A stretch of 64,000 nucleotides of DNA, from assembly GCA_014686905.1 (NCBI GenBank), contig GCA_014686905.1_4093.1. The stretch is one strand, 5' to 3'. This document shows, one piece after another, positions 21,077 to 53,156 of this stretch. How positions within the stretch are numbered: position 1 is the stretch's first letter; the number at the start of each line of letters is the position of its first letter. Under the pieces are notes generated by a model. That model saw only the letters and a program-made list of their open reading frames with translations. It did not search any database and was not told where the DNA came from. The stretch is from a phage. Position numbers and translations under genes: made by a program.

Positions 21077-21268
21077 ATGTTGATTTATCAAGGTGATAAT
21101 ATTCGTGTTATGCAGCATCCCTACTTACAAATCTTTGATGTGCAGCAGTATATGGAAGGTGATGACCCAAGAACCTATGGTCGTAAGTATGATTACTTCA
21201 CTGTAAAGCAGTGTAACAATATTAACGAAGTACGACAATTAGTTCAAGAACTTCAAAACAAAGGTTGA
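21077..21268 (+). CDS. hypothetical protein (63 aa)
   Basis: Start MLIYQGDN with SD AAGGA; track ORF starts 21023. Confidence 0.45.
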   Translation: MLIYQGDNIRVMQHPYLQIFDVQQYMEGDDPRTYGRKYDYFTVKQCNNINEVRQLVQELQNKG

Positions 21269-21294
21269 CTTCGGTCAGCCTTTTTTGTTATAAT
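21263..21294 (+). terminator. terminator-promoter cassette (UUCG hairpin whose 5' arm is the -35 box)
   Basis: GGTTGACTTCGGTCAGCC + T6, then TATAAT 18 nt after TTGACT. Confidence 0.65.
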
Positions 21295-27374: not shown

Positions 27375-27383
27375 TAATAAAAG

Positions 27384-27415
27384 GGTTGACTTCGGTCAGC
27401 CTTTTTTGTTATGAT
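27384..27415 (+). terminator. terminator-promoter cassette
   Basis: GGTTGACTTCGGTCAGCC + T6, -10 TATGAT. Confidence 0.6.
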
Positions 27416-27443
27416 GTTGATATTAACTACAGAGGATAAAGTA

Positions 27444-28085
27444 ATGACTAAGCAAGAAATATTCAAAACTTTAATTGACATTTTGCGTCCATCAAAAACT
27501 CGTTGTGCGATGGAGTTTGATATTCCTTATGCTGAACGCGTAATCTTTCCACAAGTTAAAGCTGCTGGACTTACTTTGCTTGGAATGGGGATGTACTCTG
27601 TAGTAGTTGAACATAAAAACTATCCTGGACGTGCATTTAAAGTAACCACTTCCCGCTGGGATGGTTTTCGTGCTTATGCAAAGTACTGCATTGAAAACGC
27701 AGGAACCAAGTTTCTTCCAGTGATCTACAGTGCCAACGAACAAGGAAACTTTGGATGGTATGAGATGGACAAGTACTATCCTATAATTAAACAAAAAAAT
27801 AATTATGATGACTTTGTTAGTACTAAAATTGGAGATTTGTATTCGTATGCACATGCTGGTCAGTACGCAACTTCAGTGAATGATATGCGTGGAAATTCTG
27901 AAGAGATTGCTATTGCAACGGTCGCTGCTAACATCATGAAAGAGTTTCACGGGCGTTTTGTACCAGACATTCATTCAAGTAATGTGATGATGGATAAAGA
28001 TGGGAATGTATTCATTACTGATCCTCTTTCGTGTGATGTGCGTAGAGAAATACCAATTACTGAAGAAGATCCAGTTTTTTATTGA
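27444..28085 (+). CDS. protein-kinase-like protein (~213 aa)
   Basis: AFKV (beta3 Lys), DIHSSN (DxxxxN catalytic loop), ITDP (DFG-like); start MTKQEIF with SD GAGGA. Confidence 0.5.
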   Translation: MTKQEIFKTLIDILRPSKTRCAMEFDIPYAERVIFPQVKAAGLTLLGMGMYSVVVEHKNYPGRAFKVTTSRWDGFRAYAKYCIENAGTKFLPVIYSANEQGNFGWYEMDKYYPIIKQKNNYDDFVSTKIGDLYSYAHAGQYATSVNDMRGNSEEIAIATVAANIMKEFHGRFVPDIHSSNVMMDKDGNVFITDPLSCDVRREIPITEEDPVFY

Positions 28086-28430: not shown

Positions 28431-28769
28431 ATGGAACAATATTTTGAATTAATAAACAAAGTATCATTTTATGTAGTATCTTTGGTTTGGGTGTATTATA
28501 TGTTTTGCTACATTATTGCATTCTTCCGATACACTACTTTATATGAACGTATCTACTATGATGCCCCAATTTCATTCTTGATGTTTTGTGCATGTACGTG
28601 GGGAATATTAGAAGTACTGATATGTGGGTATAGTACTGATGAATTAAATCTGGTATCGGTCTTGACTGGGTTTTCATTTGTTGTTATGATAGCTGCCGTT
28701 CCAGTATGGTTGTTCTTTGGACTAGTTCATCGCATTGATATATGGCGTTCTAATATCCCTGAAAAGTAA
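28431..28769 (+). CDS. small membrane protein, YFK-family member
   Basis: TM segments; C-terminal ...RSNIPEK. Confidence 0.55.
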   Translation: MEQYFELINKVSFYVVSLVWVYYMFCYIIAFFRYTTLYERIYYDAPISFLMFCACTWGILEVLICGYSTDELNLVSVLTGFSFVVMIAAVPVWLFFGLVHRIDIWRSNIPEK

Positions 28770-28772
28770 GGA

Positions 28773-29120
28773 TTGGTAATGATTTATTACACTAACATGT
28801 TTGCCTATGCTGTTGCTTGCATTTACATTGTTTACTTCTTATTCGGTGGAGTACTGTGCTTCTTTAAGTACAAAACGTTGTTCAACCGAATGTACCCAAA
28901 TCATCCAATTGTAGTTGTACTTTTGATTCTTTCAGTTTCTCAAATAATCGTTGAAACTACAATGGGTATCAGTAGTGTACATTATAGTTTTGGCACTATA
29001 GTAATTATTACTATGCTTATTGCATACATTTTAGTACTTGGATATGGTATCTTTGGTAATATTAGTATGAAAATGTATCATCGAATTAAAACATTACGTG
29101 ATAATCTACCGGAGCGTTGA
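28773..29120 (+). CDS. small membrane protein, family member
   Basis: TM segments; FFKYK; C-terminal ...RDNLPER. Confidence 0.55.
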   Translation: MVMIYYTNMFAYAVACIYIVYFLFGGVLCFFKYKTLFNRMYPNHPIVVVLLILSVSQIIVETTMGISSVHYSFGTIVIITMLIAYILVLGYGIFGNISMKMYHRIKTLRDNLPER

Positions 29121-29121
29121 T

Positions 29122-29466
29122 ATGTATAATTTGAACCTAATCTCATATATTATAACAACACTGTTTACATTCTATGCCTTTGTTGGTATAATCCTACTGT
29201 ACTTTAAATTTTATAAAGTGTTTAACCGTTTCTATCCTTCAATGGAGAATGAGTTTTTCTTTGTGTTGTACGTAGGTTACACATTAATGGCTACATGTTT
29301 CACTGTAGCCGATGGTGTCATCGGCATTAAAACTGATTCCCCAAATGGTAGTACGCTGGTTGCATTTATTCTTACTGGATTCCTTGCAACTTATATTGCC
29401 TTCATTACAACATGGTCAGTGGTTGAATTTCTCTTGCGACTACGAAAGAATATGCCGAATCGATAG
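29122..29466 (+). CDS. small membrane protein, family member
   Basis: Start MYNLNLIS with SD GGAG; YFKFYK; C-terminal ...RKNMPNR. Confidence 0.55.
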   Translation: MYNLNLISYIITTLFTFYAFVGIILLYFKFYKVFNRFYPSMENEFFFVLYVGYTLMATCFTVADGVIGIKTDSPNGSTLVAFILTGFLATYIAFITTWSVVEFLLRLRKNMPNR

Positions 29467-29475
29467 GAGACAAAT

Positions 29476-29730
29476 ATGTTTGCGTTGCGTAATAAAAACA
29501 CTAAAGAATTATTATGTATTGATACCGTATGGGATTGTGCGGGGTCAACTACAGTTCTTGAAGAAGGAACTGGATATTGCGTGTTTGTTGTACATGATAG
29601 GAATGAACTCGAATTATTACTTGCTGAGTTCAATGCTGGTGGTAATCCTAACAGTACTGAATACCCTGAGATTATCAATCCAGCACCACCAGGCTCTTAT
29701 GAAATTCTACAACTGTGGGAGTTGAAGTAA
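29476..29730 (+). CDS. hypothetical protein (84 aa)
   Basis: ORF, SD AGGAGA. Confidence 0.55.
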   Translation: MFALRNKNTKELLCIDTVWDCAGSTTVLEEGTGYCVFVVHDRNELELLLAEFNAGGNPNSTEYPEIINPAPPGSYEILQLWELK

Positions 29731-30110
29731 TGCGACAAATGTACAAAGTAACCGAGCTAAACAAGCGTCTGGTTAAACAATCTATGTTTGAGGATAAAGA
29801 GTCTTACTATAACTTTAAACGTGCAGTAGAGGCTTCTATCCACATTCAGAAGCTTAAAGAACGTGGTTGTATTATTCTGGAAAATGGTTCGGAAGTTGTA
29901 ACGGATGACTTTAGTGTAGCGTTTGATGTTTCACCTGACGGGACGCTATCAATGCCCCGCTTAGGAACTGGAAACATGACTGTTTGGGTTGGCTTCACTA
30001 TGGGGAATGTACCTGGTACTGTGTACGTAGATGATGCAGAATTGAAAGACAGTTTCAAAAACTTATCTTATCTTGAACCACAATACGCACATGAAATGAA
30101 TTTATTTTGA
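29730..30110 (+). CDS. hypothetical protein (~126 aa)
   Basis: Start MRQMYKV with SD GGGAG. Confidence 0.55.
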   Translation: MRQMYKVTELNKRLVKQSMFEDKESYYNFKRAVEASIHIQKLKERGCIILENGSEVVTDDFSVAFDVSPDGTLSMPRLGTGNMTVWVGFTMGNVPGTVYVDDAELKDSFKNLSYLEPQYAHEMNLF

Positions 30111-30112
30111 GT

Positions 30113-30139
30113 TGACAAACACATTCAGTACTGTATAAT
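30113..30139 (+). promoter_or_regulatory. sigma70-like promoter TTGACA-N15-TATAAT with CAGTACTG spacer
   Basis: TTGACA 30113-30118, TGTATAAT 30132-30139. Confidence 0.5.
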
Positions 30140-30186
30140 GCTTATCAAGGGGATGAACTTCTCATCCCTACAATCGAGGAACTACC

Positions 30187-30741
30187 ATGATTACTTTTAA
30201 GAAAACTGCTAACCACATCCATGAAATCTACATTAACGGTCACAAAGCTGGCCTTCTTCGTTTACTCGCCCATCACCCTGATGCTACCGTATCTGATAAT
30301 GAACCTAAAGATTGGCGTGTCTTTTTCTTTGGAAAGTACAGTGATTTTCAAGTATCAAACCTGAAGAACATTCGTTCAGTATGCACGTTAAATGAAATTA
30401 AAGAAAAGTTAGCACAAGCATTGAAAACTAATCCAGATGGTGTTCTTCCACCTGATAACTTTGTAGAGAAAGGTTATGCCTTAGCTCATTTCAAAGATGG
30501 TACTATTCAATCTATCAGTACTGAATATGAATATCATTGGACTGAGTACTTCACTTATGGTTCGAGTAATACATTGATGGATTCACGTAGTAAATTGGAA
30601 GAAGTACTGACTCGTATGAATGAACGCGAGCGTCAGTTATATGACAAACCAGAAATGTGGAGTTCAACTTACATTGACCGTATTGACTATGTTATTATGA
30701 CTCCAATCTTTGACACTGCTTACTATGATTCTTTGAAATAA
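30187..30741 (+). CDS. hypothetical protein (184 aa)
   Basis: ORF, SD GAGGAA. Confidence 0.6.
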   Translation: MITFKKTANHIHEIYINGHKAGLLRLLAHHPDATVSDNEPKDWRVFFFGKYSDFQVSNLKNIRSVCTLNEIKEKLAQALKTNPDGVLPPDNFVEKGYALAHFKDGTIQSISTEYEYHWTEYFTYGSSNTLMDSRSKLEEVLTRMNERERQLYDKPEMWSSTYIDRIDYVIMTPIFDTAYYDSLK

Positions 30742-30752
30742 GGATAACTTAT

Positions 30753-30929
30753 ATGAAACTACGTACTCGTAATCGACTGATGGATGCACTGTACCATGAA
30801 CAGCTTTCACTGAATGAAGTGAAGCGTCAGTTAATGTACACATATCAGTTTCCCGCTCGCATTGCAAAACAACGTGCTAAAGAATTGCTGAAAGAAGCAG
30901 TCGAGTACTGGGAATCTGATTCGTACTAA
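30753..30929 (+). CDS. hypothetical small protein (58 aa)
   Basis: MKLRTRNRLMDALYHEQ..., SD AAGGA; below track threshold. Confidence 0.4.
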   Translation: MKLRTRNRLMDALYHEQLSLNEVKRQLMYTYQFPARIAKQRAKELLKEAVEYWESDSY

Positions 30930-30968
30930 TATTACGTGATATGTCACGTTAATTAAGTGAGGCGATAA

Positions 30969-31220
30969 ATGAAAATATTATTAGTTCTAATACTACTAAT
31001 AGTTTTACCATTTACTTTAGTATCCCCTGGACTTGCATGGAATGTATTTGTGTACTTAGTATGTACTATTGTAGTAAATGGTATCTTGTTCTTAGTTCTA
31101 TTCATAAATGGAATAGGACACGGTGGAGGATGGACCAGTACTGCTGATATTGTACATAAAACCACTATGTCTTTATTTGTAATGTGGAATTTATTCTGGA
31201 CTTGGTTTGTGTTCTTCTAA
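30969..31220 (+). CDS. hypothetical membrane protein (83 aa)
   Basis: Hydrophobic throughout, SD GAGG. Confidence 0.5.
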   Translation: MKILLVLILLIVLPFTLVSPGLAWNVFVYLVCTIVVNGILFLVLFINGIGHGGGWTSTADIVHKTTMSLFVMWNLFWTWFVFF

Positions 31221-31228
31221 TTAAAAAT

Positions 31229-31600
31229 ATGAATATAGATTTGAAAGGTGCAACACGAACTGTTATCCTCATTGGGGAATATGCTATCAAGATTCCAACC
31301 TTTAAAAGTTGGAAGCTATTCTTAACAGGGATGATAGCTAACCTCAATGAACGTTCGTGGATGCAGTACTCCAATCGTAGTGATAGTAGTATCTGTCCTA
31401 CGTTGTGGTCATCATGTACTGGACTAGTAACTGTACAGAAACGTTGTAAGCCAGTTCAACATAGGGGTTTATTTTGGGTGGAGTTGTGTGCTTTAGCATT
31501 GAATTCAGAGTTAAGTACTGACTTCTTCTATTCAGATGCGAAGCCAGAAAACTTTGGGTATCTGGGTGGTAAGTTAGTTAAACTTGATTATGGAGATTAA
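31229..31600 (+). CDS. mini protein-kinase-like protein (~124 aa)
   Basis: EYAIKIP (beta3 Lys), DAKPENFGY (HRDxKPxN-like catalytic loop), KLDYGD (DFG-like). Confidence 0.5.
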   Translation: MNIDLKGATRTVILIGEYAIKIPTFKSWKLFLTGMIANLNERSWMQYSNRSDSSICPTLWSSCTGLVTVQKRCKPVQHRGLFWVELCALALNSELSTDFFYSDAKPENFGYLGGKLVKLDYGD

Positions 31601-31601
31601 T

Positions 31602-31871
31602 ATGTACGCACTGTATAATAAAGAAAAGAAACGATTTGCTAAGGTTGAAATTTCGATTGATACATTTGATATGTTGGAGTACTGTATTGTAACTGACCTA
31701 TATGCTAACTTGTATTACGTTCTTGATGACGTATCAGTACTGCAACGATTGCTTGAGAATTCCAAAAGTCAATGCCAGGGCATCCATGATGGTTCATCTT
31801 ATGAAACACCTGAGTGTTCCTACGGCTATCTGGACGGGTATGAGATTGTGAAGTTGGGGAACATTGAATAA
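31602..31871 (+). CDS. hypothetical protein (~89 aa)
   Basis: Start MYALYNKEK within track ORF 31584..31871. Confidence 0.5.
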   Translation: MYALYNKEKKRFAKVEISIDTFDMLEYCIVTDLYANLYYVLDDVSVLQRLLENSKSQCQGIHDGSSYETPECSYGYLDGYEIVKLGNIE

Positions 31872-31877
31872 AGAAAA

Positions 31878-31910
31878 GGGTTGACTTCGGTCAGCCCTTT
31901 TTGCTATAAT
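31878..31910 (+). terminator. terminator-promoter cassette (consensus copy)
   Basis: GGGTTGACTTCGGTCAGCCC + T5, TATAAT 18 nt after TTGACT, then ATTATTTCATCAA box. Confidence 0.7.
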
Positions 31911-31938
31911 TATTTCATCAAGACGAGAGGATGAATAC

Positions 31939-32454
31939 ATGACACGCATTAACTTAGTACACGTTAAAGAACTTGCTGACCAACATCTGATGGCTGAATA
32001 TCGTGAACTCCCACGTGTATTTGGTGCTGTACAAAAACACGTTCAAGCACGTAAGCGTGTACGTGATTTCAAAATTAACAGTACTTATCTGTTAGGTTCA
32101 GGTCATGTGACATTCTTTTACGACAAGTTGCTGTACTTACAGAAGCGTCATATCGATATTGTTAACGAATGTTTGCGTCGTGGTATGAAGATTCAAAACA
32201 CTGAAGTAAACGACATTAGCGGCTTCCCTGCTGAGTTTTGTAATGACTACGTACCAACGGAGTCAGAGATTAAAATGTCTCGTGATCGTTTGATTGAGAA
32301 GCTCCAGATGAAGCCTACGTGGTATAAGTTTACTGATGTTGAATGTCCACAGTACGTTAAAGATATGCAGAACGTAAGTAGTAAGAACGAATCTAGTACT
32401 GATATGTTCGACGAAATTGAAGAACAAATCAAAGATGAAATGAATAATTATTAA
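31939..32454 (+). CDS. denV: pyrimidine-dimer DNA glycosylase / endonuclease V (T4 DenV-like)
   Basis: N-terminus [35 protein letters not shown]...KRVRDFKI and ...[10 protein letters not shown]...PTWYK match my recollection of T4 endonuclease V, including catalytic Thr2. Confidence 0.85.
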
Positions 32455-32492
32455 AGGAAAGGGTTGACTTCGGTTACACAAAGGAACATAAC

Positions 32493-32687
32493 ATGTTATT
32501 AGTATATTCAAAGCGTTTCTGGATTTCTTTTATTGTACTATCGCTAATCGGCTTCGGTTTGAGTATACTCTTTTCGTGGGATGAATTGGGTACATGGTAT
32601 TATGAAGTCCCGTGGTACATGAAGATAGCTCCTTGTTATGCGGCATTGTTCGTGTCATTCCTTATTGTTGTCTTCAGCGAGGATTAG
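32493..32687 (+). CDS. hypothetical small membrane protein (64 aa)
   Basis: Two TM-like segments; preceded by degenerate cassette copy 32459-32478. Confidence 0.45.
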   Translation: MLLVYSKRFWISFIVLSLIGFGLSILFSWDELGTWYYEVPWYMKIAPCYAALFVSFLIVVFSED

Positions 32688-32793
32688 TTGATGTAGTATG
32701 TGCTACACCAAAGTATTTGGATATTTTAGATATAAACATTGACACCTGTTCTATCTTTCTGTATTATGTACATCACCAAATGAGGAATACAAC

Positions 32794-33153
32794 ATGGCAT
32801 CTTTAAGTGAAATCGCAGAATACAACCCACTAACAATCTCAACAATTCAACGTACAAAAACTTTTTATTTCCGTCCTGCTGATGGATGGAAACGTGGAAT
32901 GAATGGTGACTATCGAGTACTGGAAGATTCACTAATCGAGCGTATCAACTCTGAACTACAGAAGTATGAAGGTGTTAAAGTTGTGCGTTCAACTTCTCGT
33001 TATTTTGAGTACTACATTGAGTCTTCAACTGTAAATGAAAACTCATCATTCTCGGTGGACAACACTGATATTCTTCGTAATGCTGTTGGTCTTTTATGCA
33101 GGATTGCAGAAGAAATTGGATTAACTATCACCACAATGAGTGAGTTAGAATAA
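32794..33153 (+). CDS. hypothetical protein (119 aa)
   Basis: ORF, SD GAGGAA. Confidence 0.55.
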   Translation: MASLSEIAEYNPLTISTIQRTKTFYFRPADGWKRGMNGDYRVLEDSLIERINSELQKYEGVKVVRSTSRYFEYYIESSTVNENSSFSVDNTDILRNAVGLLCRIAEEIGLTITTMSELE

Positions 33154-33159
33154 CATAAA

Positions 33160-33192
33160 GGGTTGACTTCGGTCAGCCCTTTTTGCTATAAT
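33160..33192 (+). terminator. terminator-promoter cassette
   Basis: GGGTTGACTTCGGTCAGCCC + T5 + TATAAT + ATTATTTCATCAA. Confidence 0.7.
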
Positions 33193-33218
33193 TATTTCAT
33201 CAACACAAGAGGTAACAA

Positions 33219-33455
33219 ATGAAACTATCTTTTATACGATTAGCTGAATTCTTCGGTACTGATGTAATTACTTTACAACAAATTGCAGATAATACTTCAT
33301 TAAGTACACAAGAAGTACTTGACTTAGATGTAATTCAGTGCGATAATACTTCCATCGATTTCAAAGAAGGTCTTGTCGAAAAAGATAAGATTAAAGCTAA
33401 GATTAATGGTGCTGGGCGGGTTCAGTACTGGAAAGGAGTATTAAGTAATGTTTGA
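33219..33455 (+). CDS. hypothetical protein (78 aa)
   Basis: ORF, SD AGAGGT. Confidence 0.5.
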   Translation: MKLSFIRLAEFFGTDVITLQQIADNTSLSTQEVLDLDVIQCDNTSIDFKEGLVEKDKIKAKINGAGRVQYWKGVLSNV

Positions 33456-34566
33456 ACAGTATTATTTAAATGAAGATGGTGAAAAAGTTTATTTTCATGA
33501 AGAACTTGGTATGCGTTTTGAATGGATGAAGCCTGAAGATATAAAAAGGGTTTCAAAAGGACTCACTGCTAAGGATCATGTTGATGACATAGAAGCAAAA
33601 TTAAAAAACAAAGATATTGACAATATTACTATTATTGGATTATCAGTTAAATCATCACGTGAGTTTGGTAAAAACGGAAATAGTAATAACAATTTACTGA
33701 TTATGTATAATGGGGTATTGTATGATAATTATAAAATAACTGGTTTAAAAACAAAGCTTGAAAAAATAACAAACAATAAATTCAAGCCATCATTTACCTA
33801 TACAGATGAAAATTATTATTACTATGTAACCAAATTGGGTTCTCTTGAGGAAAGAGGATGCTATATATATGAAAATGAACATTTAGACAATGGGATAATG
33901 TCATATATTAAATTCACATATTCCGATGGATTTACACAACCACGAAGAATAAATGATATAATTACAAAAACATCAATGAACGTTAGATATTTTATAACAC
34001 CTGAAATGCGTGAAACAATTGCTAACACACGCTGTAATGAACTAGGATATACATTAAAAGAAGTTTACAAGAAATCAAATGGTCGTTATTATGTAAAATA
34101 TATATGTGATAAAGGACACGAGTGTAATCAAGACTATTATGCGTTTACTAGTAAACAAGCACAAAAGTGTGGATGCTGTTCCCAATTAGAAACACACTCA
34201 TTTGGTCATAATGATTGTAAAGAGTTTTTGAGAGGAATGTTTGTTACTGAAAGAGAGAAAACATTTCCTGATTTAAAAAATAAATCAAAACTTCCATATG
34301 ATTTTTATATTCGTGATATTAATACGTTATTTGAATATGATGGTAGTAATCACTTTGAAGAACGTGAATCAGGATGGGGAAACGGACTTATGAGGAAAAA
34401 ACACGATAAAATCAAAACAGAATACGCAATAAAAAATGGATATAACTTCATTCGTATTGCGTATTATGAAGACCATATTGGAGCATTGAAATCTTTCCTT
34501 AAACTCATTGAAGAGAATCCAGGAAAGCAAATCGTGCAGATCTATGGTGAAGTACAAATTATCTAA
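33448..34566 (+). CDS. putative endonuclease-like protein with Cys cluster (372 aa)
   Basis: CDKGHECNQ...CGCCS Zn-finger-like cluster, then PYDFYIRDINTLFEYDGSNHFEE resembling a restriction-endonuclease-like core. Confidence 0.45.
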   Translation: MFEQYYLNEDGEKVYFHEELGMRFEWMKPEDIKRVSKGLTAKDHVDDIEAKLKNKDIDNITIIGLSVKSSREFGKNGNSNNNLLIMYNGVLYDNYKITGLKTKLEKITNNKFKPSFTYTDENYYYYVTKLGSLEERGCYIYENEHLDNGIMSYIKFTYSDGFTQPRRINDIITKTSMNVRYFITPEMRETIANTRCNELGYTLKEVYKKSNGRYYVKYICDKGHECNQDYYAFTSKQAQKCGCCSQLETHSFGHNDCKEFLRGMFVTEREKTFPDLKNKSKLPYDFYIRDINTLFEYDGSNHFEERESGWGNGLMRKKHDKIKTEYAIKNGYNFIRIAYYEDHIGALKSFLKLIEENPGKQIVQIYGEVQII

Positions 34567-34574
34567 AACAAAAG

Positions 34575-34606
34575 GGTTGACTTCGGTCAGCCCTTTTTGC
34601 TATAAT
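34575..34606 (+). terminator. terminator-promoter cassette
   Basis: GGGTTGACTTCGGTCAGCCC + T5 + TATAAT + ATTATTTCATCAA. Confidence 0.7.
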
Positions 34607-34634
34607 TATTTCATCAACTGATGAGGATAACGAA

Positions 34635-35405
34635 ATGACCAGAGAAGCACGTAGCATTCAAATCCAGAAAAACTTCAACTCCATGATGGTTGCTCTTGAG
34701 TGTTTGCTCGACGATAGCAGTACTGTAAAAAGTATGGTTGTCAGTGGTGCTCCTGGTGTTGGTAAGACTTACACCCTGTCTAAACGCCTCCAGAAAGCTC
34801 ATGACGCAGCAGAATGGAACGTAGCTACTATCAGTGGTAAGATGACTACACTGGCTCTGTACGAAGTTCTGTACAAGAATCGTCACAGCACCAACGTGTT
34901 AGTACTGGATGATATGGACAGCATCTTTGATTCTGAAGACGGTATGAACCTGCTCAAAGCTGTTTTGGATAGTGGTAAGCGTACTGTATCTTATATGACT
35001 AGCTCTAAGTACTTGAGCACTAACGGCATTCCTAATAGCTTTGATTTTAATGGTCGCATCGTATTCATTACTAACAAAGATTTAGCGTTAGATGCTAAAG
35101 CTAAAACTAAAATGTCTGCTCATTATGCTGCTCTTATGTCTCGTTCTGTGTACGTGGATTTACAGATTCAGACTAAAAGTGATATCATGATTCATATTGA
35201 AAATGTAATGACTAAGACTAATATTCTTGCATCTAAAGGTGTTAACAGTAACGGCAGTAAAGCAATTCTGAACTGGATGTTAAAACATGAAGATAATCTT
35301 CGTGCACCATCCCTGCGTATGCCTTTGTTGATTTCAGCAGTATATAACAACAATCCGTATGATTGGGAAGAACAATGTGAAAACTTGTTCCTTGAGAAAA
35401 TCTAA
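34635..35405 (+). CDS. P-loop NTPase / AAA-type ATPase (256 aa)
   Basis: Walker A GAPGVGKT, Walker B VLVLDDMD. Confidence 0.7.
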   Translation: MTREARSIQIQKNFNSMMVALECLLDDSSTVKSMVVSGAPGVGKTYTLSKRLQKAHDAAEWNVATISGKMTTLALYEVLYKNRHSTNVLVLDDMDSIFDSEDGMNLLKAVLDSGKRTVSYMTSSKYLSTNGIPNSFDFNGRIVFITNKDLALDAKAKTKMSAHYAALMSRSVYVDLQIQTKSDIMIHIENVMTKTNILASKGVNSNGSKAILNWMLKHEDNLRAPSLRMPLLISAVYNNNPYDWEEQCENLFLEKI

Positions 35406-35472
35406 TTACATATGTTGACAGTACTACCATAGTGTAGTACTATAACTTAATATTCACCACCGGAGATACGAT

Positions 35473-35814
35473 ATGCTTGAGTTTTTTAATTCAGATACAA
35501 TGCTTGGTATCACGCTAATTTACATGTTTGTATTTTTGTGTTATCATTCAATTGTAATTAGTCTGTGGTATTTTAAAAGGAAAATTGTTTTTAAATTGTA
35601 TTCGGATGATAATGTAGTCTTAGTTTTATATAGTATTATCCAAGGTGGGTTTATTTTATTTGGTGTGATGACATATGCGATTTACATGTTACAAATTGAT
35701 AATACACCACACATTACACAATATCTTGTGTTTTCAGGTCTAATCGTGTGGTTGTTGGTGTGTAGCATATACTTTATTATTAAAGCTCGTGATAGAATTA
35801 AAGGGGATTTCTAA
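35473..35814 (+). CDS. small membrane protein, YFK-family
   Basis: TM helices, WYFKRKIVFKLY, C-terminal RDRIKGDF. Confidence 0.55.
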   Translation: MLEFFNSDTMLGITLIYMFVFLCYHSIVISLWYFKRKIVFKLYSDDNVVLVLYSIIQGGFILFGVMTYAIYMLQIDNTPHITQYLVFSGLIVWLLVCSIYFIIKARDRIKGDF

Positions 35815-36152
35815 TGTTAACATTCTTTAAGTCAGATACAATGCTTAGTATTACTTTGATTTATCTTTTTGGTTTTTTCTTTTATCATGCACTGGTTGTA
35901 GTACTATGGTATTTTAAAAAGAAAATTGTTTTTAAACTGTATCCAGTGAGGAATTCATCACTAGTTCTTTACACAATTGTTCAAGGTTTGTTTGCAATTG
36001 TTGGTCTTATGGCACACTTAATTTATTGTGCTAATCCTCACTTGAACTCAATCTCACAATATATTGTATTCTTTGGGTTGTTCATTTGGTTAGGTGTATA
36101 CTTAATCCATCTCATTATTCATGGTAGAGATAAAATTCGCGGAGACTTCTAA
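35814..36152 (+). CDS. small membrane protein, YFK-family
   Basis: Close paralog of 35473 (WYFKKKIVFKLY ... RDKIRGDF). Confidence 0.55.
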   Translation: MLTFFKSDTMLSITLIYLFGFFFYHALVVVLWYFKKKIVFKLYPVRNSSLVLYTIVQGLFAIVGLMAHLIYCANPHLNSISQYIVFFGLFIWLGVYLIHLIIHGRDKIRGDF

Positions 36153-36499
36153 TGTTTGAAGCTTATCTTGAGTTTTTAAGGAGTAGTCCAGTTGCACATT
36201 CACTTGCAGGGATTATTCTAACAACTTATGTATCATTTTGGGTAGTTATGTTTCTAGGATGGTATTTTAAACGACAATTCTATAAACGTAATGGTGAAGA
36301 TTTTATGAATTCTGTCATTAATCAATCGTTGTTTGCATCAACATTGATTGCATGTATTGTAGCAACACTCACAGGAAAGGTACTACCAGCTTTTTCCGCA
36401 GTTTACGGCACACTTGGGATGATATGTTTAACTTTTATATTGACCATTAAAATTTGTTGTGTTATGATTGAACTTCGAAATAAGATACCGGAGGAATGA
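36152..36499 (+). CDS. small membrane protein, YFK-family
   Basis: WYFKRQFYKR, C-terminal ELRNKIPEE. Confidence 0.55.
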   Translation: MFEAYLEFLRSSPVAHSLAGIILTTYVSFWVVMFLGWYFKRQFYKRNGEDFMNSVINQSLFASTLIACIVATLTGKVLPAFSAVYGTLGMICLTFILTIKICCVMIELRNKIPEE

Positions 36500-36834
36500 T
36501 GGAGTACTTTATTGATTTACTGCCGTGGTATATGAAAGTTAGTACCATGTACTATATTATTAGTGCTGGATTCTACTTTCTGATGTGGTTCTTTAAACGA
36601 CCAATTTCAGTATTCATCGCTGATAACATGCTGCAATTAAAATTACACGCATGGTTTGGTCTGGCGATGATTATGCCTATTATTCACTACTCAATGATTA
36701 GTAGAGGTTTCCGTTCTAATGGTGAACCAATTGTATTAGTATTCTATTGGGGTTCAACTATTGCATATGTAAGTTTGTTGTTGTTCCCAGTCGTTCATAA
36801 GTTACGTGCTAAAGTTCCTGATGCGAGGTACTAA
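36496..36834 (+). CDS. small membrane protein, YFK-family
   Basis: WFFKRPISVF, C-terminal LRAKVPDARY. Confidence 0.55.
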   Translation: MMEYFIDLLPWYMKVSTMYYIISAGFYFLMWFFKRPISVFIADNMLQLKLHAWFGLAMIMPIIHYSMISRGFRSNGEPIVLVFYWGSTIAYVSLLLFPVVHKLRAKVPDARY

Positions 36835-37148
36835 TGGATATAGTAACATTGATTTACACGTTGTATTCATTCTATTTCATTATGTGTTGGGTTGGATTTT
36901 TATTTGTACTCAAGATGTTTGATTATGTTGAAAAACAGATAAAAGAATTTTGTATTCCTTTTATCGGTTCAACCATTATTAGTGTTTCTTGTGTGTATTT
37001 TTTGGTTTTTGATCCACCAGATAACACTGCAATGATTGACTTGATGTTACTACCAACAACTGTTACTTTTTTATGTAGTCTGATGCCGCCGATTAGCCGT
37101 GGACTAACAGAATTTAGACGCAATCAAAAGCGTAAACGAGGGATGTAA
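36834..37148 (+). CDS. small membrane protein (104 aa)
   Basis: TM helices, basic C-terminal tail. Confidence 0.5.
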   Translation: MDIVTLIYTLYSFYFIMCWVGFLFVLKMFDYVEKQIKEFCIPFIGSTIISVSCVYFLVFDPPDNTAMIDLMLLPTTVTFLCSLMPPISRGLTEFRRNQKRKRGM

Positions 37149-37516
37149 TGGAAATTGCTCTTATTATCTTAACTGCTATGTTGTTTATTAGTACTGTGGT
37201 TATAATTGGTAAATTCTTTTGTGTATCATTTTTAGAAACGGTATACGATGAAATTGCTGATGATTATGAACTACAAGCCGGATTTTTCATTACGTATTGG
37301 CTTAGTTTATTTTGTCTAGTCATTGCTTGGATTTTACATATCTTTAAATGGGGTATGGTAGACGGTGATCCTATTATGGCAATTATTGTTCTAGTGTTTG
37401 GTATCCTTGGTGGTGCAGTGCATAATCTAATGGTTATCTGGCAAACTGTTCAATATGTTTTGGTTCCCTATTTCGAAAAGATGCACAGTACAATTAAAAA
37501 ACGTAAACGAGGTTAG
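37148..37516 (+). CDS. small membrane protein (122 aa)
   Basis: TM helices, basic tail IKKRKRG. Confidence 0.5.
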   Translation: MEIALIILTAMLFISTVVIIGKFFCVSFLETVYDEIADDYELQAGFFITYWLSLFCLVIAWILHIFKWGMVDGDPIMAIIVLVFGILGGAVHNLMVIWQTVQYVLVPYFEKMHSTIKKRKRG

Positions 37517-37517
37517 T

Positions 37518-37880
37518 ATGAACGGGATAGAATTATCTTTCGTTGGTCAATTACTAGTAATGGCGTATACATTTATCTTCTCACTGAATGCATTCGTGTG
37601 CATTGGGAAGTACTTCCATAAGCGACCATTATCAAATATATATGATGTAATCCAAAAGAGATATAGTCCAGCATATACTGTGTTGGGTACAGTATTCAAT
37701 TTTGGTTTTATTGTATTAATAATTGGACTGTTCACATCCTCTTTGAATACAATAACCTTCGGTCTTATGATATGTTCATTGGTATTAGCCGTAATTATAT
37801 GTTGTTTAGTACTGCACCTTGTGGTACTATTGTATATAAAGATCTCTGAAATCCACCAACGTTTGGGTATGAGGAAATAA
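37518..37880 (+). CDS. small membrane protein (~120 aa)
   Basis: Start MNGIELSF with SD GAGG; TM helices. Confidence 0.5.
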   Translation: MNGIELSFVGQLLVMAYTFIFSLNAFVCIGKYFHKRPLSNIYDVIQKRYSPAYTVLGTVFNFGFIVLIIGLFTSSLNTITFGLMICSLVLAVIICCLVLHLVVLLYIKISEIHQRLGMRK

Positions 37881-37881
37881 T

Positions 37882-38253
37882 ATGAGTTACCGTGAGATAT
37901 TTTCCATTATTTCAATTATTATGTTCAGTACTGGAACACTGGTATGGTTATTATACTTCTTCTGTATTAATCCAGTGTATAATATGTTATGTAATATTAA
38001 ATCAAGTGCCGGATATATCACTTTTATGGTCTTTATGGGATATTATTGTCTAAGCATTTTAGGTGTTGTTTTGGTTGTTATATTTGATGTGGGACCAAAT
38101 AGTGATGGTATGGAAATACATGAATTAATAACCATGTTTGGATGTATGATACCAACAGCACTACTGTTTGTAGCTACTGGTAGTGGATTGATAAAATTAT
38201 ATAATTATTTAAAATCCATTCATAATTCCATTCATAATAAGCGTATGTCATAA
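37882..38253 (+). CDS. small membrane protein (123 aa)
   Basis: TM helices, SD GAGGAA. Confidence 0.5.
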   Translation: MSYREIFSIISIIMFSTGTLVWLLYFFCINPVYNMLCNIKSSAGYITFMVFMGYYCLSILGVVLVVIFDVGPNSDGMEIHELITMFGCMIPTALLFVATGSGLIKLYNYLKSIHNSIHNKRMS

Positions 38254-38258
38254 TAAAA

Positions 38259-38283
38259 ATCCAGTACTATTAAGTACTGGATT
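38259..38283 (+). terminator. perfect hairpin (possible terminator or processing site)
   Basis: AATCCAGTACT-ATTA-AGTACTGGATT; no clear T-run. Confidence 0.35.
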
Positions 38284-38957: not shown

Positions 38958-40090
38958 CAAATACAGTACTGGCAACTCCACCGTCTGTAATATATTGTCC
39001 AGTACTGTAAATTTGTATACCATCGGTTAAGTAAGTTCTGTATAAAGTTGCTGTAACATATACGTTATTCATATTCATCTCTATTGGTAGTACACATTTG
39101 GTATAGGCCGACACATCTGTTTGTGTACCTATACCCAATTGACCTGCGTTATCGCCTGTGTTATAACCAGTTGCGTAAACACCTAATGAAGTTATAATAT
39201 GATTAGAAAAATATGAATAACCCACACTGCTTCTTATTATATCACCTGGTGCTTGTGTTGTTTGTCTTAACGAAATATATGTTTGTGATGTAGAACCATT
39301 TGCTAACTGACCAAAGTACTGTCCACCACCATGATATGCAAATAATTTATTAGTACTATTATTACTTGCTATAGCAAAAGCGAAGTAACTTGAGTTTGTT
39401 GTATAATCTTTCACCGTATAGGTATTAGTTATTTGAGAACATAACGTGTACTTTGAATATAACGTCATGTCGGTTGTACCTACGCCTGATATTGCACCAG
39501 TATAATACAATCTCCCATCGGTTCCAATAAATCCTTGCATAAGAAAATTTGCCAGTATTTTGGATGGTGTTACTCCAGTAGGTACTGTTCCTTGTACAAA
39601 TGATGAAAGTGAATCGGTACTTCTACCATTTCCCAGTTGTCCATAACTACCATAACCAGTATTCCATATCGTGTTGTCTGTACATAATACGCTTAATGCA
39701 CCTGCACTAACTGCAATTTGTTTTATTGTTTTTCCTAGGGCTGTTATTCTATCAAACACTATCTTTGCAGAAGCCCACGTAGTAGACTTATCAGTTGATA
39801 AACCCAATGATGCACCATTCCCAGCGTACCACATCGTATTATCTTTCTTTTTTATTAAAGTTGACTCATACCCGCACCCATATATCTTCTACGTTTGTAT
39901 TGCATAAAACCCATTGGGTCTGTGTTATAATATTACCTATACCCATTTGCCCAAACTCTTGAGAGCCTCTACTGTATAGTGTCCCGTCTGACATAAGGGC
40001 AAAAACTGTCGTATCAGATGAAGATATTTTGGTAACAGTAGGGGGTAGGTTCTTTTTTGATGATGTGATAATTCTTCCAAAGGGTAGCAT
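38938..40090 (-). pseudogene. RCC1-like repeat protein, paralog 1, interrupted by frameshift near 39870-39890
   Basis: N-part starts MLPFGRII and stops at 39866; RCC1-like body continues in another frame (track ORF 38938..39834); indel in a C-run. Confidence 0.6.
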
Positions 40091-40162
40091 TGTATCCTCC
40101 AAATGTAAATCGTTATTATATTTAGGACAAAAAAATGCCAGTACAAGGCACTGGCATAAAAT

Positions 40163-41332
40163 CTAAGCAGAAGGCATATCCTTCATTTTAATAAATGAAA
40201 ATTGTGTACCAGTATTTGTGGTTTGATCAGTAAAATATGAATTACTACCAGCCCAGTACAATTCATTATTAACTATACAATATATAACAGAACTCGAACT
40301 CTGTGAATACACACGACTTATATTTGATGGTTCTACTCCAGTACTGAACTGAACCGAACCCAACTGTGAACTTGGTATCACATCAGTTGGTCTACCTAAA
40401 CCATTAACACCAGCCCCACCACCACATGTATATACCCCAGTACTATCAGTTGATATATTAACATAACCATTTCCGGCATTTTCAAATAGTATTTCACTGG
40501 GAACAACACCAAATCCAGTAAGATCTATTTTCCTGAATGTAGTGTAAACAGTAGAACCACCAACACCTCTTCCACCATAATCATTAGAACCAGCCATATA
40601 GATACTATATCCAGAACTTCCTAAACATAATAACTGTACGTTGTCATATAATATTTGCATAGATATAACGTTATCAGGAATACTCAATACCGTAAAAGTA
40701 GTTAAAGAAGAACTTCCAATATTACTACCAACCGATGTTCCACATCTGTAGTACTTACCGCCTTTTATATAATGGAACGATGAACCGCCTAACTTATGTG
40801 CTCCTATTGTACTTACCCCAGTATCTATAAGAATGGGAGATACAACTTTGTTATTAACACCTAACTCAGATCTACTGTTCATACCGAACCCATATAAACG
40901 ACCATCTAACATCAATATTAGTGTACTACCGGAAGTACCCGCTGACGTAAATTCTATATTCTTTATTTGCGACACGTCAATACCTACAAATAATGAAGTT
41001 ACTTCAGTCCAGTTAACATATGAACCACTAGCCCCAAAATATCCACCCATGTATAGACCTGCACAATATAATTTATTATCAACAGTCTTTATTAATGTAC
41101 CGGATACACACGCCCAAAAATCATCAACTTCATAGGGTACATGTACCCAACCACCTAATACATCACTAGCATCCCCTGTACCTAATTTATAGTTCGAACC
41201 AGAACCACGCATGTACATATTCCCTGTACTATAAAGTAATCCGACATGTAATTGACTACCATCCAATTTCTTTATTTCAGGAAGAGTTGGTTTAATATTT
41301 CCGTACTTTAACATTCTTCCAAAAGGTAACAT
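40163..41332 (-). CDS. RCC1-like repeat (beta-propeller) protein, paralog 2
   Basis: MLPFGRMLKYGNI leader; G-x-N-x-x-GxLG repeats (GFGMNSRSELGVNN); SD GGAGAA. Confidence 0.75.
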   Translation of the reverse strand: MLPFGRMLKYGNIKPTLPEIKKLDGSQLHVGLLYSTGNMYMRGSGSNYKLGTGDASDVLGGWVHVPYEVDDFWACVSGTLIKTVDNKLYCAGLYMGGYFGASGSYVNWTEVTSLFVGIDVSQIKNIEFTSAGTSGSTLILMLDGRLYGFGMNSRSELGVNNKVVSPILIDTGVSTIGAHKLGGSSFHYIKGGKYYRCGTSVGSNIGSSSLTTFTVLSIPDNVISMQILYDNVQLLCLGSSGYSIYMAGSNDYGGRGVGGSTVYTTFRKIDLTGFGVVPSEILFENAGNGYVNISTDSTGVYTCGGGAGVNGLGRPTDVIPSSQLGSVQFSTGVEPSNISRVYSQSSSSVIYCIVNNELYWAGSNSYFTDQTTNTGTQFSFIKMKDMPSA

Positions 41333-41342
41333 AATTTTCTCC

Positions 41343-42522
41343 TTAAATTGGTGGCAATTGGTATTCAGTTAAAGTCCATGTACCAACAACTGTCCCTACT
41401 GGAGACATACCAGTGTAGTATAATTTGCCATTCACATATGCAAATAATGCATTGTCATTCGCAGCAACCAACGATGTTGACGGATCATAAACTACAGAAT
41501 TTGGAAATTGTGCTTGGACGAAAATTGAAGCATTATTAGATGAATTGTTACCAAGCTGTCCATAATTATTATACCCTGTTCCAAAAATACGACTTCCATT
41601 TCTATATAATAATCCCCTAGGATTTTGTGAATATGTTTGTATAAATTCAAAATCGGAAACATTAGTTAATTGTAAATAAGTACTTTGTGGCGTTAAAGAT
41701 ATCTTATTAGTATTAGATAGAACACCATTTCCTAATTGTCCGTGAATTTTGTGACCCTACACCATATAGCGGATAAGTATTATCTACATTAAGAACTATA
41801 CCCAACATATTGTTATATGAAATTATATCAACGGGGTACTGGCCTGTAGGAAAACTATACTTTGTCCAACTCGTCAAAGTATCAGTAGCAGAACCAGTTA
41901 ACAATGTACCAGTACTAGTTTTACCACATCTCCATGCTGAATTATCATTTTTAATTATCCAAGTTGGACTATTGAAAAATGAACTAACCTTTTTAACATT
42001 AATATTAACCTGTGTAAATGATGTAAGTGTAGATGAACTACTACCCAACTCATAGGTTGAATTATCACCTATTGCGTAAAGAACACTATCATTTGTTAGT
42101 AAAAACATATTACGAACATTTGGATATATCTCCTTGATATTATCCACATTAAAACCTGAAAAATAAGACGTACAATCAACAAATGTAGTACTTTGAACTG
42201 CACTAGATGTACCAGTCCAAAGGTTCCAACCTGCATAATAAAATTTATTATCATTGGTCTGAACTAAGCTATATGAAGCATTCCTTGTGCACCAAAAATT
42301 TTTCACATTTTGCATTAAGCGAACCCATTTGGTCTGTGTCGTTGTATTTCCAAGACCGAATATACCAGCATTGTTACCGCCAATACCCCACAAATCACCG
42401 TTCTTATACAGAATCATCAATGTGTTGTTGGTAAAAGCCGATGGTGCTTGCATTTTAATTACACTAGATTCATATATAGGTGCAATATTCCCGTACTTTA
42501 ACATTCTTCCAAAAGGTAACAT
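41343..42522 (-). pseudogene. RCC1-like repeat protein, paralog 3, frameshifted near 41740-41760
   Basis: N-part (track 41713..42600, true start MLPFGRML at 42522) ends ...RTIRKWCSI; body continues in shifted frame (HGQLGNG..., GTGYNNYGQLGNN) to stop at 41343. Confidence 0.6.
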
Positions 42523-42603
42523 AATTCCTCCTTTATTCATTATACTATATTTAATACAAATAAGAAAGCCAGCACTCTGTACTGGCTTTTTGATATACAT
42601 ACT

Positions 42604-43791
42604 TCATATACCCAATTTAATTGGCTCATATTGAAATAGTGTAGGATTGGAGTCAGGGTAGTTCACCACTTCTGTTCCTGGATATGCACCATACCCGTTG
42701 AATGCACCTGAACCATATACTATACCATCGGTGCTAATTAATGCAGAATAATTGTTTCCCATACCAACTGACAGTACTGTCATTGTTGATGTACCTTCTG
42801 GTAGGTTTATAACCTGCTCTCTGAAACTATTACCAGAAGCTGTTGGAACACTAAATCCTAATCTGCCATTGCTACTATTAGTAGAGCCAGTTGCATAACG
42901 TGTACCTGTACTCAAATCCTGAATCCAACACGATGGTCCTTGACCCTCTGGATCAGTCCAGTATCTAAAATTAGCACTATCGTATGTAAAGGGAAGAACT
43001 GCTAATCTGTTAGTTCCCTGGGAACCTGAAGTATACGTCAATCCATACAATGAAGTAAGCAAACCACGAACATATAATCCAGTACTCTTGGTGTATAACA
43101 ATGAGCCTCCTGAACCATCTGAATTGATTGAAAGGATATCAGTATCACCTATATTTGTGAATACCTTAATATCAGATGACCCCGATGTTAATCCATAATT
43201 ACCACAGAACCAAGCTGTGTTATCGTTCTTTAACACAACAACTGTTTCATAAGAACAGGTTACCACATCTTTACAGTTAGTATTGATTTGTACAAATTCA
43301 CCAATCTTCCCAGTTAGGGTATTATTACCAAACTGTCCACGGTTATTTGAACCCATAGCATATAATATTCCAGTACTATTCAATGCGTATATTGTACTAG
43401 TTCCTGGTGTTTCACGGCGTGTAATTGCAATCTTTGTAATAGTTCCTAATGTGCTGAAAAATGAACTCACATCAACGAAACTTGTTTGTGAACCTAATCC
43501 AAATTGACTTAAATTCCCCGCCGCCATATATCTTCCATCATTCATTAGACATATAGTATATGCTGGATGACAGTATATCATAGCTACATTTATAAGAACT
43601 AAGCTAGGCACTCCACCAACAATCGAAGTGGTTGGTGTACCAAAACGATACTCATTGTTTGACCCATATGCAAATAACTTACCATCAGTAGTTAAAAATA
43701 AATGCCCTAATCCATAAGTATTAATCTTGCGGATACCAGCGGGTGGTGGTATCTTATTCCCGTACTTTAACATTCTCCCAAAAGGTAACAT
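42604..43791 (-). CDS. RCC1-like repeat protein, paralog 4
   Basis: MLPFGRMLKYGNK leader; AMGSNNRGQFGNN, AYGSNNEYRFG repeats. Confidence 0.75.
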   Translation of the reverse strand: MLPFGRMLKYGNKIPPPAGIRKINTYGLGHLFLTTDGKLFAYGSNNEYRFGTPTTSIVGGVPSLVLINVAMIYCHPAYTICLMNDGRYMAAGNLSQFGLGSQTSFVDVSSFFSTLGTITKIAITRRETPGTSTIYALNSTGILYAMGSNNRGQFGNNTLTGKIGEFVQINTNCKDVVTCSYETVVVLKNDNTAWFCGNYGLTSGSSDIKVFTNIGDTDILSINSDGSGGSLLYTKSTGLYVRGLLTSLYGLTYTSGSQGTNRLAVLPFTYDSANFRYWTDPEGQGPSCWIQDLSTGTRYATGSTNSSNGRLGFSVPTASGNSFREQVINLPEGTSTMTVLSVGMGNNYSALISTDGIVYGSGAFNGYGAYPGTEVVNYPDSNPTLFQYEPIKLGI

Positions 43792-43799
43792 ATTCCCTC

Positions 43800-44975: not shown

Positions 44976-45045
44976 ACTTCCCTCCTTTATTCATTATACT
45001 ATATTTAATCAAAAAGAAAAGCCAGTACTCTGTACTGGCATAATT

Positions 45046-46188: not shown

Positions 46189-46194
46189 AATTCC

Positions 46195-46253
46195 CCTCCT
46201 TATTCATTATACTATATTTAATACAAATAAGAAAGCCAGTATCAAGTACTGGC
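46195..46253 (-). promoter_or_regulatory. representative module: upstream terminator hairpin + -35-less promoter + SD
   Basis: On - strand: GCCAGTACTTGATACTGGC hairpin, T-rich, TTAAATATAGTATAATGAATAAGGAGG, then ATG; repeated before most paralogs. Confidence 0.5.
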
Positions 46254-46260
46254 CTATATT

Positions 46261-46929: not shown

Positions 46930-47000
46930 ACTTCCTCCTTTATTCATTATACTATATTTAATACAAATAAGAAAGCCAGTACTTTGTACTGGCGAAATTA

Positions 47001-53131: not shown

Positions 53132-53156
53132 AGAAGGAATATAAGGAGAACTACAC

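Follow-up and report, generated by a model that had tools for sequence, protein, structure and literature searches.

We found that a 64,000-nucleotide stretch of phage DNA (NCBI GenBank assembly GCA_014686905.1, contig GCA_014686905.1_4093.1; referred to below, at its full length, as the window) carries eleven small genes, here named m01 to m11, which lie in two tandem blocks and appear to form a single superfamily divided into two subfamilies, A (m01-m07) and B (m08-m11). Their mutual homology is strongly supported by profile comparisons. It is also strongly supported, as a predicted topology, that the family consists of inner-membrane proteins of about 110 amino acids (aa) with three helices, a periplasmic N-terminus and a basic cytoplasmic C-terminus. 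As to their role, we assign a probability of roughly 0.35 to the reading that they are an early inner-membrane set that guards or modifies the membrane of the infected cell, by superinfection exclusion and/or by neutralizing membrane-acting host factors.

Simple comparisons reveal only part of this kinship. Pairwise BLAST joins only m01-m02-m03 and m04-m05, and the PHROGs database divides the 11 members among seven families (19285, 19454, 27618, 26405, 27396, 33258 and 19046), every member matching one of them at 1e-52 to 1e-70. We analyzed the plus-strand open reading frames (ORFs) of syntenic loci from 12 related phages by an iterative hidden Markov model (HMM) search, in which a reversed copy of each ORF, identical to the real one in composition and hydropathy pattern, was present as a decoy eligible for inclusion. 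At an inclusion threshold of 1e-4, 10 out of 11 seeds ended in a common set of approximately 105 ORFs, including all 11 members from the window; the joining E-values of the members ranged from 1e-5 to 1e-28, the best decoys reached 1e-4 to 1e-2, and no decoy was recruited. At 1e-6 the seeds m06, m09 and m10 reached all 11 members, and the seeds m01, m03 and m05 reached m01-m07. At 1e-8 two separate cores were obtained, m01-m06 and m09-m11, a result that speaks against a single family.

Alignment of narrow orthogroup profiles by hhalign revealed strong links within the groups m01/02/03, m04/05, m06/07 and m09/10/11 and intermediate links between m06 and m01-m05, so that direct profile-profile links are strong only inside m01-m07 and inside m09-m11 (with m08). 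Across subfamilies A and B the hhalign links were weak (best probability 40%); the median probability was 16 versus 0.5 in reversed controls. The bridging of the two subfamilies depends on intermediate sequences that occur in other phages. When all six frames of the 64-kb window were scanned with the family HMM, precisely the 11 ORFs were returned.

The restricted BLAST links, the distribution of 11 members over seven PHROGs families, the weak hhalign signal between A and B and the separation of the subfamilies at the 1e-8 inclusion level would all be expected if there were no true 11-member family, that is, if at least two unrelated groups of small hydrophobic proteins looked alike through composition and size. 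We consider this very improbable, since reversed decoys never entered any HMM iteration, three seeds still joined all 11 members at 1e-6, and the hhalign median clearly differed from that of the reversed controls. The members also have a common length, topology and tandem location, and they share position-specific motifs, namely a Phe after the first transmembrane helix (TM1) and an Arg or His after the third (TM3). Moreover, when 1.84 billion representative proteins were searched with a 70-sequence profile built from both subfamilies, 59 representatives matched at E <= 1e-3, all of them full-length proteins of about 100-127 aa except two short fragments. Thus, what the eleven proteins share goes beyond hydrophobicity, and the proposal of an initial annotation of this DNA, made from the letters alone, that they represent a single family arranged as two tandem blocks is upheld by both the decoy-controlled HMM search and the six-frame scan.

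The window contains exactly 11 family ORFs, all of them on the plus strand and 104-123 aa in length. Their positions, as first annotated, were confirmed with slight corrections of two starts. Start sites were chosen from the ribosome-binding sites and from the near-identical annotation of Escherichia phage vB_EcoM_G17 (G17); in this way the ATG at 28779 was preferred over the TTG at 28773 for m02, and the start of m10 was set at 37518. Block 1 comprises three genes of subfamily A: m01 (28431-28769; 112 aa, three predicted transmembrane helices; phrog_19285, family HMM), m02 (28779-29120; 113 aa; family HMM) and m03 (29122-29466; 114 aa; family HMM and hydropathy). Block 2 begins with m04 (35473-35814; 113 aa), a recent duplicate of m05 (35814-36152; 112 aa) with 56% identity to it, both assigned by family HMM and hydropathy. 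They are followed by m06 (36152-36499; 115 aa; HMM and hhalign), which acts as a hub between subfamilies A and B, and by m07 (36499-36834; 111 aa; family HMM). The block ends with the four genes of subfamily B, i.e., m08 (36834-37148; 104 aa), the most divergent one, m09 (37148-37516; 122 aa), m10 (37518-37880; 120 aa) and m11 (37882-38253; 123 aa). These were assigned by HMM and hhalign, together with hydropathy for m08 and m09 and the G17 annotation for m10.

Along its entire length, the region 28.0-38.5 kb shares 98.4% identity with the Escherichia phages G17 and Sharanji, Asteriusvirus jumbo phages of 350-370 kb that fall within the 'RaK2-like' group. Judged by this identity, the source of the window is an Asteriusvirus (RaK2-like) jumbo phage of E. 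coli. In G17 all 11 ORFs are labeled 'hypothetical protein'; the homologues in phage 121Q are gp207-209 and gp224-232. The ratio of nonsynonymous to synonymous substitution rates (dN/dS), calculated against phages UE-S1 and ph0011, was 0.05-0.47 for all 11 members (0.14-0.20 for m01), and it is strongly supported that all of them are real genes under purifying selection.

Transmembrane helices were predicted by a Kyte-Doolittle hydropathy scan. Three hydrophobic helices were detected in 10 out of 11 members from the window, the remaining one, m07, having an aromatic-rich TM1 marginally below the threshold. In the wider family, three helices were scored in 88 of 99 unique sequences from 13 genomes. 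In each of these 88 sequences the number of Lys and Arg residues in loop 1 and the C-terminal tail exceeded that in the N-terminus and loop 2, a positive-inside bias that implies an N-out/C-in topology; the net charge is -0.7 for the N-terminus, +0.6 for loop 1, -0.7 for loop 2 and +3.2 for the C-terminal tail. Homologues from phage GAP32 carry a separate annotation of '3 transmembrane domains (TMHMM, Phobius)'. AlphaFold2 models of m06 and m11 (mean predicted local distance difference test score, pLDDT, 74.7 and 64, respectively) have a common layout composed of TM1, a short helix, TM2 and a TM3 that runs into a tail helix. The hydrophobic start and the basic tail that had been noticed at first were therefore borne out by the scan of the 11 members and of the wider family, and the proteins would be expected to insert into the inner membrane of the host.

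The sequence motifs described in the initial annotation hold only in a relaxed form. The motif (W/L)YFK(R/K) after TM1, which had been called conserved, fits subfamily A and is exact in five members (m03-m07), but it is degenerate in subfamily B; a relaxed version, aromatic-F-[KR], is found in 7-8 of the 11, and the central Phe is present in all 11 members and in 87% of the 99 family sequences. The consensus of the cytoplasmic end of TM1 can be written as [ILV]-[GLM]-[WKY]-[FYL]-F(87%)-[KC], with an aromatic residue about eight positions further on. Similarly, the tail R.N(I/L/M)P(E/N), said to occur often, was found as an exact R.N(I/L/M)P in only three members (five if K is allowed), whereas its relaxed variant, R/H-x-[KN][IL] with a basic end, extends over the whole family. 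Here the consensus is L..L..[R 66% / H 31%]-x-[KN]-[IL] and then a K/R-rich end, and Arg or His after TM3 is present in 97% of the 99 sequences and in all 11 members from the window. Conservation is thus concentrated at the cytoplasmic face of the membrane (aromatic-Phe-Lys and Arg/His-x-Lys/Asn-Ile/Leu) and reaches its minimum in the periplasmic loop. In m06 the conserved Phe is F39 and the conserved Arg is R109. Over the 99 sequences, the helices contained no conserved polar residues suggestive of a channel.

To judge from the promoters, both blocks belong to the early genes of the phage. Sigma-70 sites scoring at least 11/12 were found seven times on the plus strand of the region, against 0.64 +/- 0.74 in dinucleotide shuffles, and not once on the minus strand; five to six of the seven are situated just upstream of ORF starts. 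Several of these sites are part of a repeated composite cassette, GGGTTGACTTCGGTCAGCCC-T5-GCTATAAT, in which a terminator hairpin contains a -35 element in its stem and a -10 element is located just downstream. The cassette, GGGTTGACTTCGGTCAGCCCTTTTTGCTATAAT, is present in five copies, all on the plus strand (21262-21294, 27383-27415, 31878-31910, 33160-33192 and 34574-34606), with none expected. This repeated cassette probably marks module boundaries for recombination.

Block 1 follows the second of these copies, a PeSL-like terminator hairpin plus sigma-70 promoter at the head of the operon (27383-27415; GGGTTGACTTCGGTCAGCC-T6-GTTATGAT; promoter score 10/12 with an extended TG), and the first gene of the operon, which encodes a T7 gp0.7-like protein kinase (27411-28085, plus strand; phrog_15752, E = 1.2e-98; G17_00108, 'putative protein kinase'). 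Block 2 lies behind the last copy, a PeSL-like cassette as well (34574-34606; TTGACT-18-TATAAT, 11/12), and a gene for an NrdC.10-like P-loop/AAA ATPase (34635-35405, plus strand; Pfam AAA 23.6 bits with a cut-off of 21.2; phrog_1250; tblastn match to the T4-type nrdC.10). A second candidate sigma-70 promoter with an internal hairpin (35415-35443, plus strand; TTGACA-17-TACTAT) is located directly upstream of m04, and the operon is closed after m11 by a strong terminator hairpin with an 11-bp stem (38258-38283), which is also a terminator in the G17 annotation. The neighboring genes, i.e., the gp0.7-like kinase, denV and the AAA ATPase, are of the early or host-takeover type. Since near-consensus sigma-70 promoters precede both blocks, we infer their early expression, with transcription by the host RNA polymerase.

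The organization of the region resembles that of T4-type phages, in which short early genes without known function, many of which encode membrane proteins, lie between PeSL promoter-terminator cassettes and are shuffled as modules (PMC2839356, PMC4122927). The two have in common the repeated cassette and a modular recombination, seen here between the ATPase gene and the array that follows it (see below). It should be mentioned that the likeness concerns genome architecture and not a protein family, and that it is drawn from published descriptions of such cassettes.

Within the blocks the genes are tightly packed. At eight of the nine internal junctions, neighboring family genes are spaced by -1 to +1 nt, with a 1-nt overlap at 35814, 36152, 36499, 36834 and 37148 and a 1-nt gap at 29120/29122, 37516/37518 and 37880/37882 (plus strand). 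The Shine-Dalgarno sequence of the next gene is formed by the last 2-4 codons of the preceding one (P-E = CCGGAG, G-D = GGAGAC, R-G = CGAGG). The residues at the very C-terminus are therefore under a double constraint, one from the translation signals and one from the function of the protein. Translational coupling of the genes within the arrays, as predicted from these junctions, is strongly supported.

Word-indexed protein searches revealed only close Asteriusvirus relatives, and the exhaustive HMM search described above added 46 more distant representatives. Of these, 44 matched, by BLAST with 24-99% identity, array ORFs of the RaK2-like phages that we had fetched, and the motifs are present in the remaining two. 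Of ten representatives whose contigs were looked up, two lie on contigs as long as a jumbo-phage genome (about 351 and 362 kb) and most of the others on short metagenomic pieces. On the basis of these matches, the range of the family is limited to RaK2-like jumbo phages.

Each of the 12 RaK2-like relatives that were examined carries, behind the gene of the NrdC.10-like AAA ATPase, 3-10 family genes in an array. These phages represent at least four named genera as well as unclassified Salmonella and Erwinia phages, and include Asteriusvirus, Alcyoneusvirus RaK2, Mimasvirus GAP32 and XbC2, Eneladusvirus BF, Salmonella phage Munch and Erwinia phage Hallingskeid. Block 2 of the window corresponds to this ATPase-adjoining array, and block 1 occupies a second, separate location; the number of copies varies from 3 to 11 between genera. 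We also found an ORF of approximately 255-266 aa inserted within the array in GAP32 (locus L008, 9479-10243), BF (L009, 9133-9933) and XbC2 (L011, 10402-11184); according to BLAST, this ORF of Mimasvirus and Eneladusvirus is no paralogue of the ATPase.

Reciprocal best matches revealed that the order m04/05-m06-m07-m08-m09-m10-m11 is collinear in phages A4 and JNE01 and largely so in RaK2. Since the order is retained as far as this Klebsiella phage, most of the duplications are old and predate the split of the genera. Recent events are the duplication of m04/m05 and, in JNE01, that of m08. At the same time, the ATPase of the window is 97% identical to that of A4, a phage of the same genus, whereas the array members are only 24-67% identical; this greater divergence and the variable copy number indicate that turnover on a long time scale is real. 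The initial annotation had taken the eleven copies as a sign of expansion under selection. This view stands as regards purifying selection and long-term turnover, but does not hold for a recent expansion, as only m04/m05 is a young pair.

Two allele types of the ATPase (58% identical to each other) and three types of the array (alpha, beta and gamma) were distinguished among Asteriusvirus genomes. They occur in four combinations (the window versus loci L002, L003, L004 and L006), which points to modular recombination, with a breakpoint in the 68-nt spacer between the ATPase gene and m04.

The constant company of the ATPase suggests another role for the family, in which the paralogs would be non-redundant subunits of a hetero-oligomeric inner-membrane assembly with the NrdC.10-like ATPase, serving as its anchor, as a channel or in translocation. 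Consistent with this, the ATPase precedes the array in every relative examined, the first gene of the array often abuts the ATPase stop codon, the order of the orthogroups is collinear to that in RaK2, and coupled translation suggests that the products are made in matched amounts. Furthermore, the array is inherited as a single type over all its genes, and the conserved residues face the cytoplasm, where the ATPase would dock. However, the ATPase-proximal array ranges from 3 to 10 copies between genera and includes the recent duplications of m04/m05 and of m08 in JNE01, and the ATPase alleles combine freely with the array types, so that a co-adapted pairing is not visible. Block 1, moreover, is 6 kb away in another operon without an ATPase. 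Conversely, the ATPase is kept without the array in T4-type phages and in PA5oct; in RB69 (T4-type) and PA5oct we found the NrdC.10 ATPase and no family member nearby. Finally, the helices are devoid of the conserved polar residues that would suggest a channel. With all this in mind, we regard such an assembly as rather unlikely, and it seems distinctly improbable that at least eight distinct three-helix paralogs build a hetero-oligomeric membrane machine, powered or organized by the ATPase, that works, for example, as a dedicated channel or as a platform on which DNA, protein or lipid is handled in the course of the jumbo-phage cycle.

The early context of the blocks is also compatible with a function directed at the host. 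The proteins may be early host-takeover effectors that bind particular inner-membrane proteins of the host and inhibit or re-purpose them (transporters, division or envelope-stress machinery, proteases), the gain being to phage replication and not the exclusion of competitors. They share early operons with the gp0.7-like host-takeover kinase, they have a membrane topology, and a set of diverged paralogs could correspond to a set of host targets; the restriction of the family to phages of Enterobacterales, plus one Xanthomonas phage, agrees with this too. We nevertheless consider it unlikely, as no similarity to known inhibitors was revealed, and conserved host membrane proteins poorly explain why the arrays of phages infecting the same species are only 24-67% identical.

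Comparison with known families gave few leads. None of the 11 members had a significant match in Pfam (including its holin and Imm families) or NCBIfam; the best PADLOC match, to PycTM, concerned one member only and was insignificant (E = 0.018), and in the PDB no relative was found by sequence or fold. All PHROGs matches are of 'unknown function', except for one weak 'membrane protein'. The fold matches in BFVD were GAP32/CBB-type proteins that belong to the same family. Indeed, the HMM assigns to it GAP32_522-527 ('putative membrane protein, 3 transmembrane domains') and putative membrane proteins of Pectobacterium phage CBB; GAP32_522-527 have the same length, the same three-helix prediction and the same position downstream of an NrdC.10-like ATPase as the array in the window. 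The databases list the GAP32, CBB and PHROGs members as separate families without known function, and here they are merged. The notes 'Phi92_gp233' and 'Phi92_gp231' in the annotation of ph0011 were rejected as an artefact of annotation transfer, the phi92 genes being unrelated ORFs of 75 and 121 aa and not a pair of ATPase and three-helix protein; the family HMM had no matches in the phi92 locus.

In architecture, the family is similar to class I holins of the lambda S105 type, small proteins of about 105-120 aa with three transmembrane domains, an N-out/C-in topology and a charged, basic C-terminal tail. The proteins might accordingly be lysis timers of the holin, antiholin or pinholin kind, which would accumulate in the inner membrane and, by depolarizing it, release a membrane-tethered endolysin of the signal-arrest-release (SAR) type. 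In favor of this, the RaK2-like endolysin is described as having an N-terminal membrane helix (PMC5259590), which would call for a depolarizing trigger, and in the RaK2-like and Asteriusvirus papers searched by keyword no holin is convincingly assigned for these phages. Unlike class I holins, which are expressed late and linked to the endolysin, the window family is present in 11 copies, and both its blocks are preceded by early sigma-70 promoters and adjoin genes of the early type. The endolysins are far off: they are gp532 in 121Q (PMC5259590) and ORF 534 in UE-S1 (PMC12805682), more than 300 gene numbers from the arrays (gp207-209/gp224-232 and UES1_181-202, respectively). The Pfam holin models matched no member from the window at E <= 1, with NCBIfam likewise giving no match, and the hhalign probability against lambda S was 0.3%. 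A clear dual-start motif is not present, and a genome with 11 holin-like genes would be without precedent. We consider a function in lysis timing quite unlikely; the holin/antiholin-like candidates of the initial annotation are accordingly disfavored by the early operons, the distant endolysins and the lack of a match to holin profiles.

The other candidates proposed at the outset, immunity and superinfection exclusion, are plausible for the family by analogy. Early small inner-membrane proteins with a known role in phages T4, lambda, P22 and HK97 act mostly in exclusion, immunity or lysis inhibition. T4 Imm (Pfam Imm_superinfect), SieA of P22 and gp15 of HK97 are small inner-membrane proteins like those studied here, and, as with the family, the genes for T4 Imm and similar exclusion proteins belong to early and variable parts of the genomes of virulent phages. 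T4 Imm itself has 83 aa and two helices; the members from the window have 104-123 aa and three helices, and none of them matched Imm_superinfect at E <= 1. It should be mentioned that in Erwinia phage Hallingskeid a separate gene, not a member of the family, is annotated as encoding a superinfection immunity protein.

We consider it the likeliest of the readings, though at low confidence, that the family represents a set of early proteins protecting or modifying the membrane of the infected cell. According to this hypothesis, the host RNA polymerase would make the proteins early, and they would enter the host inner membrane. All paralogs would use a common module at the cytoplasmic face in a similar way, and each would have its own specificity in the helices and at the periplasmic face, so that several paralogs could serve several targets. 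In this manner they may guard or re-condition the inner membrane throughout the long cycle of the jumbo phage, possibly by blocking the entry of the DNA of superinfecting phages, in the style of T4 Imm, and/or by neutralizing membrane-acting host factors. The homology of the members, their three-helix topology, purifying selection, early sigma-70 promoters and the conservation of the cytoplasmic face support this reading. It is further supported by the conflict-type evolution of the locus, i.e., the divergence of the array beside a nearly unchanged ATPase, the four combinations of types and the variation from 3 to 11 copies.

Several observations weigh against the protective role. No exclusion or immunity protein similar by sequence or fold was found in Pfam, NCBIfam, PADLOC or the PDB, and the early timing is deduced from promoter sequences. 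Every orthogroup of Asteriusvirus is kept in the same order, collinear with RaK2, and such retention would sooner be expected of non-redundant parts than of an arsenal with a fast turnover. Furthermore, whole-gene dN/dS is below 1 throughout, and fast divergence is typical of weakly constrained small membrane proteins too, and is not specific to conflict.

Several other features were observed in the vicinity of the two blocks. Between them there are two small hydrophobic ORFs on the plus strand, at 30969-31220 (83 aa) and 32493-32687 (64 aa), neither of which is matched by the family HMM or belongs to the family; the 83-aa ORF had no match in Pfam or PHROGs. A 372-aa ORF (33448-34566, plus strand) just upstream of the cassette that precedes the ATPase gene has HNH/homing-endonuclease-like PHROG matches; it is missing from the corresponding place in UE-S1, as would fit a mobile insertion. 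On the opposite strand, at approximately 39400-53450, about 10 paralogous genes with RCC1 repeats ('DNA condensation protein') run towards the end of block 2, and behind each of them lies a separate terminator. Next to them, at 53381-57380 on the plus strand, we found a second, larger tandem family of about 17 ORFs of 59-69 aa, labeled 'hypothetical' in G17 (G17_00054-00069). Its members follow the pattern of an N-terminal M[NH]KE[FY]Y, a central Cys and a C-terminal ...Y..L.LI[FY]RY, and the series is interrupted at 54610-55281 by an ORF of 223 aa.

For phage therapy against E. coli, Klebsiella, Salmonella and Erwinia, the RaK2-like jumbo phages are candidate agents, and more than 80% of their genes are without known function. 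According to a preprint, they often persist in bacterial isolates (bioRxiv 10.1101/2024.12.31.630880). Up to now, the genes analyzed here had been deposited as encoding hypothetical or putative membrane proteins. Our analysis merges at least seven 'hypothetical' families into one superfamily with a predicted topology and motifs at the cytoplasmic face, and adds a putative signal for early expression. It also gives the superfamily a conserved partner in the genome, the NrdC.10-like ATPase, a protein uncharacterized even in T4. In the papers on RaK2-like phages and Asteriusvirus, in jumbo-phage overviews and in the 'nrdC.10' literature, as searched by keyword, we found no description of the merged superfamily or its motifs, of its restriction to RaK2-like phages, of its position next to the ATPase, of the early-promoter context or of a role. 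If the proteins act in exclusion or against host defence, the finding would bear on the design of phage cocktails and on the way in which slow-growing giant phages protect the infected cell. A complex with the ATPase, if the proteins do form one, would represent a new phage membrane apparatus without a described counterpart.

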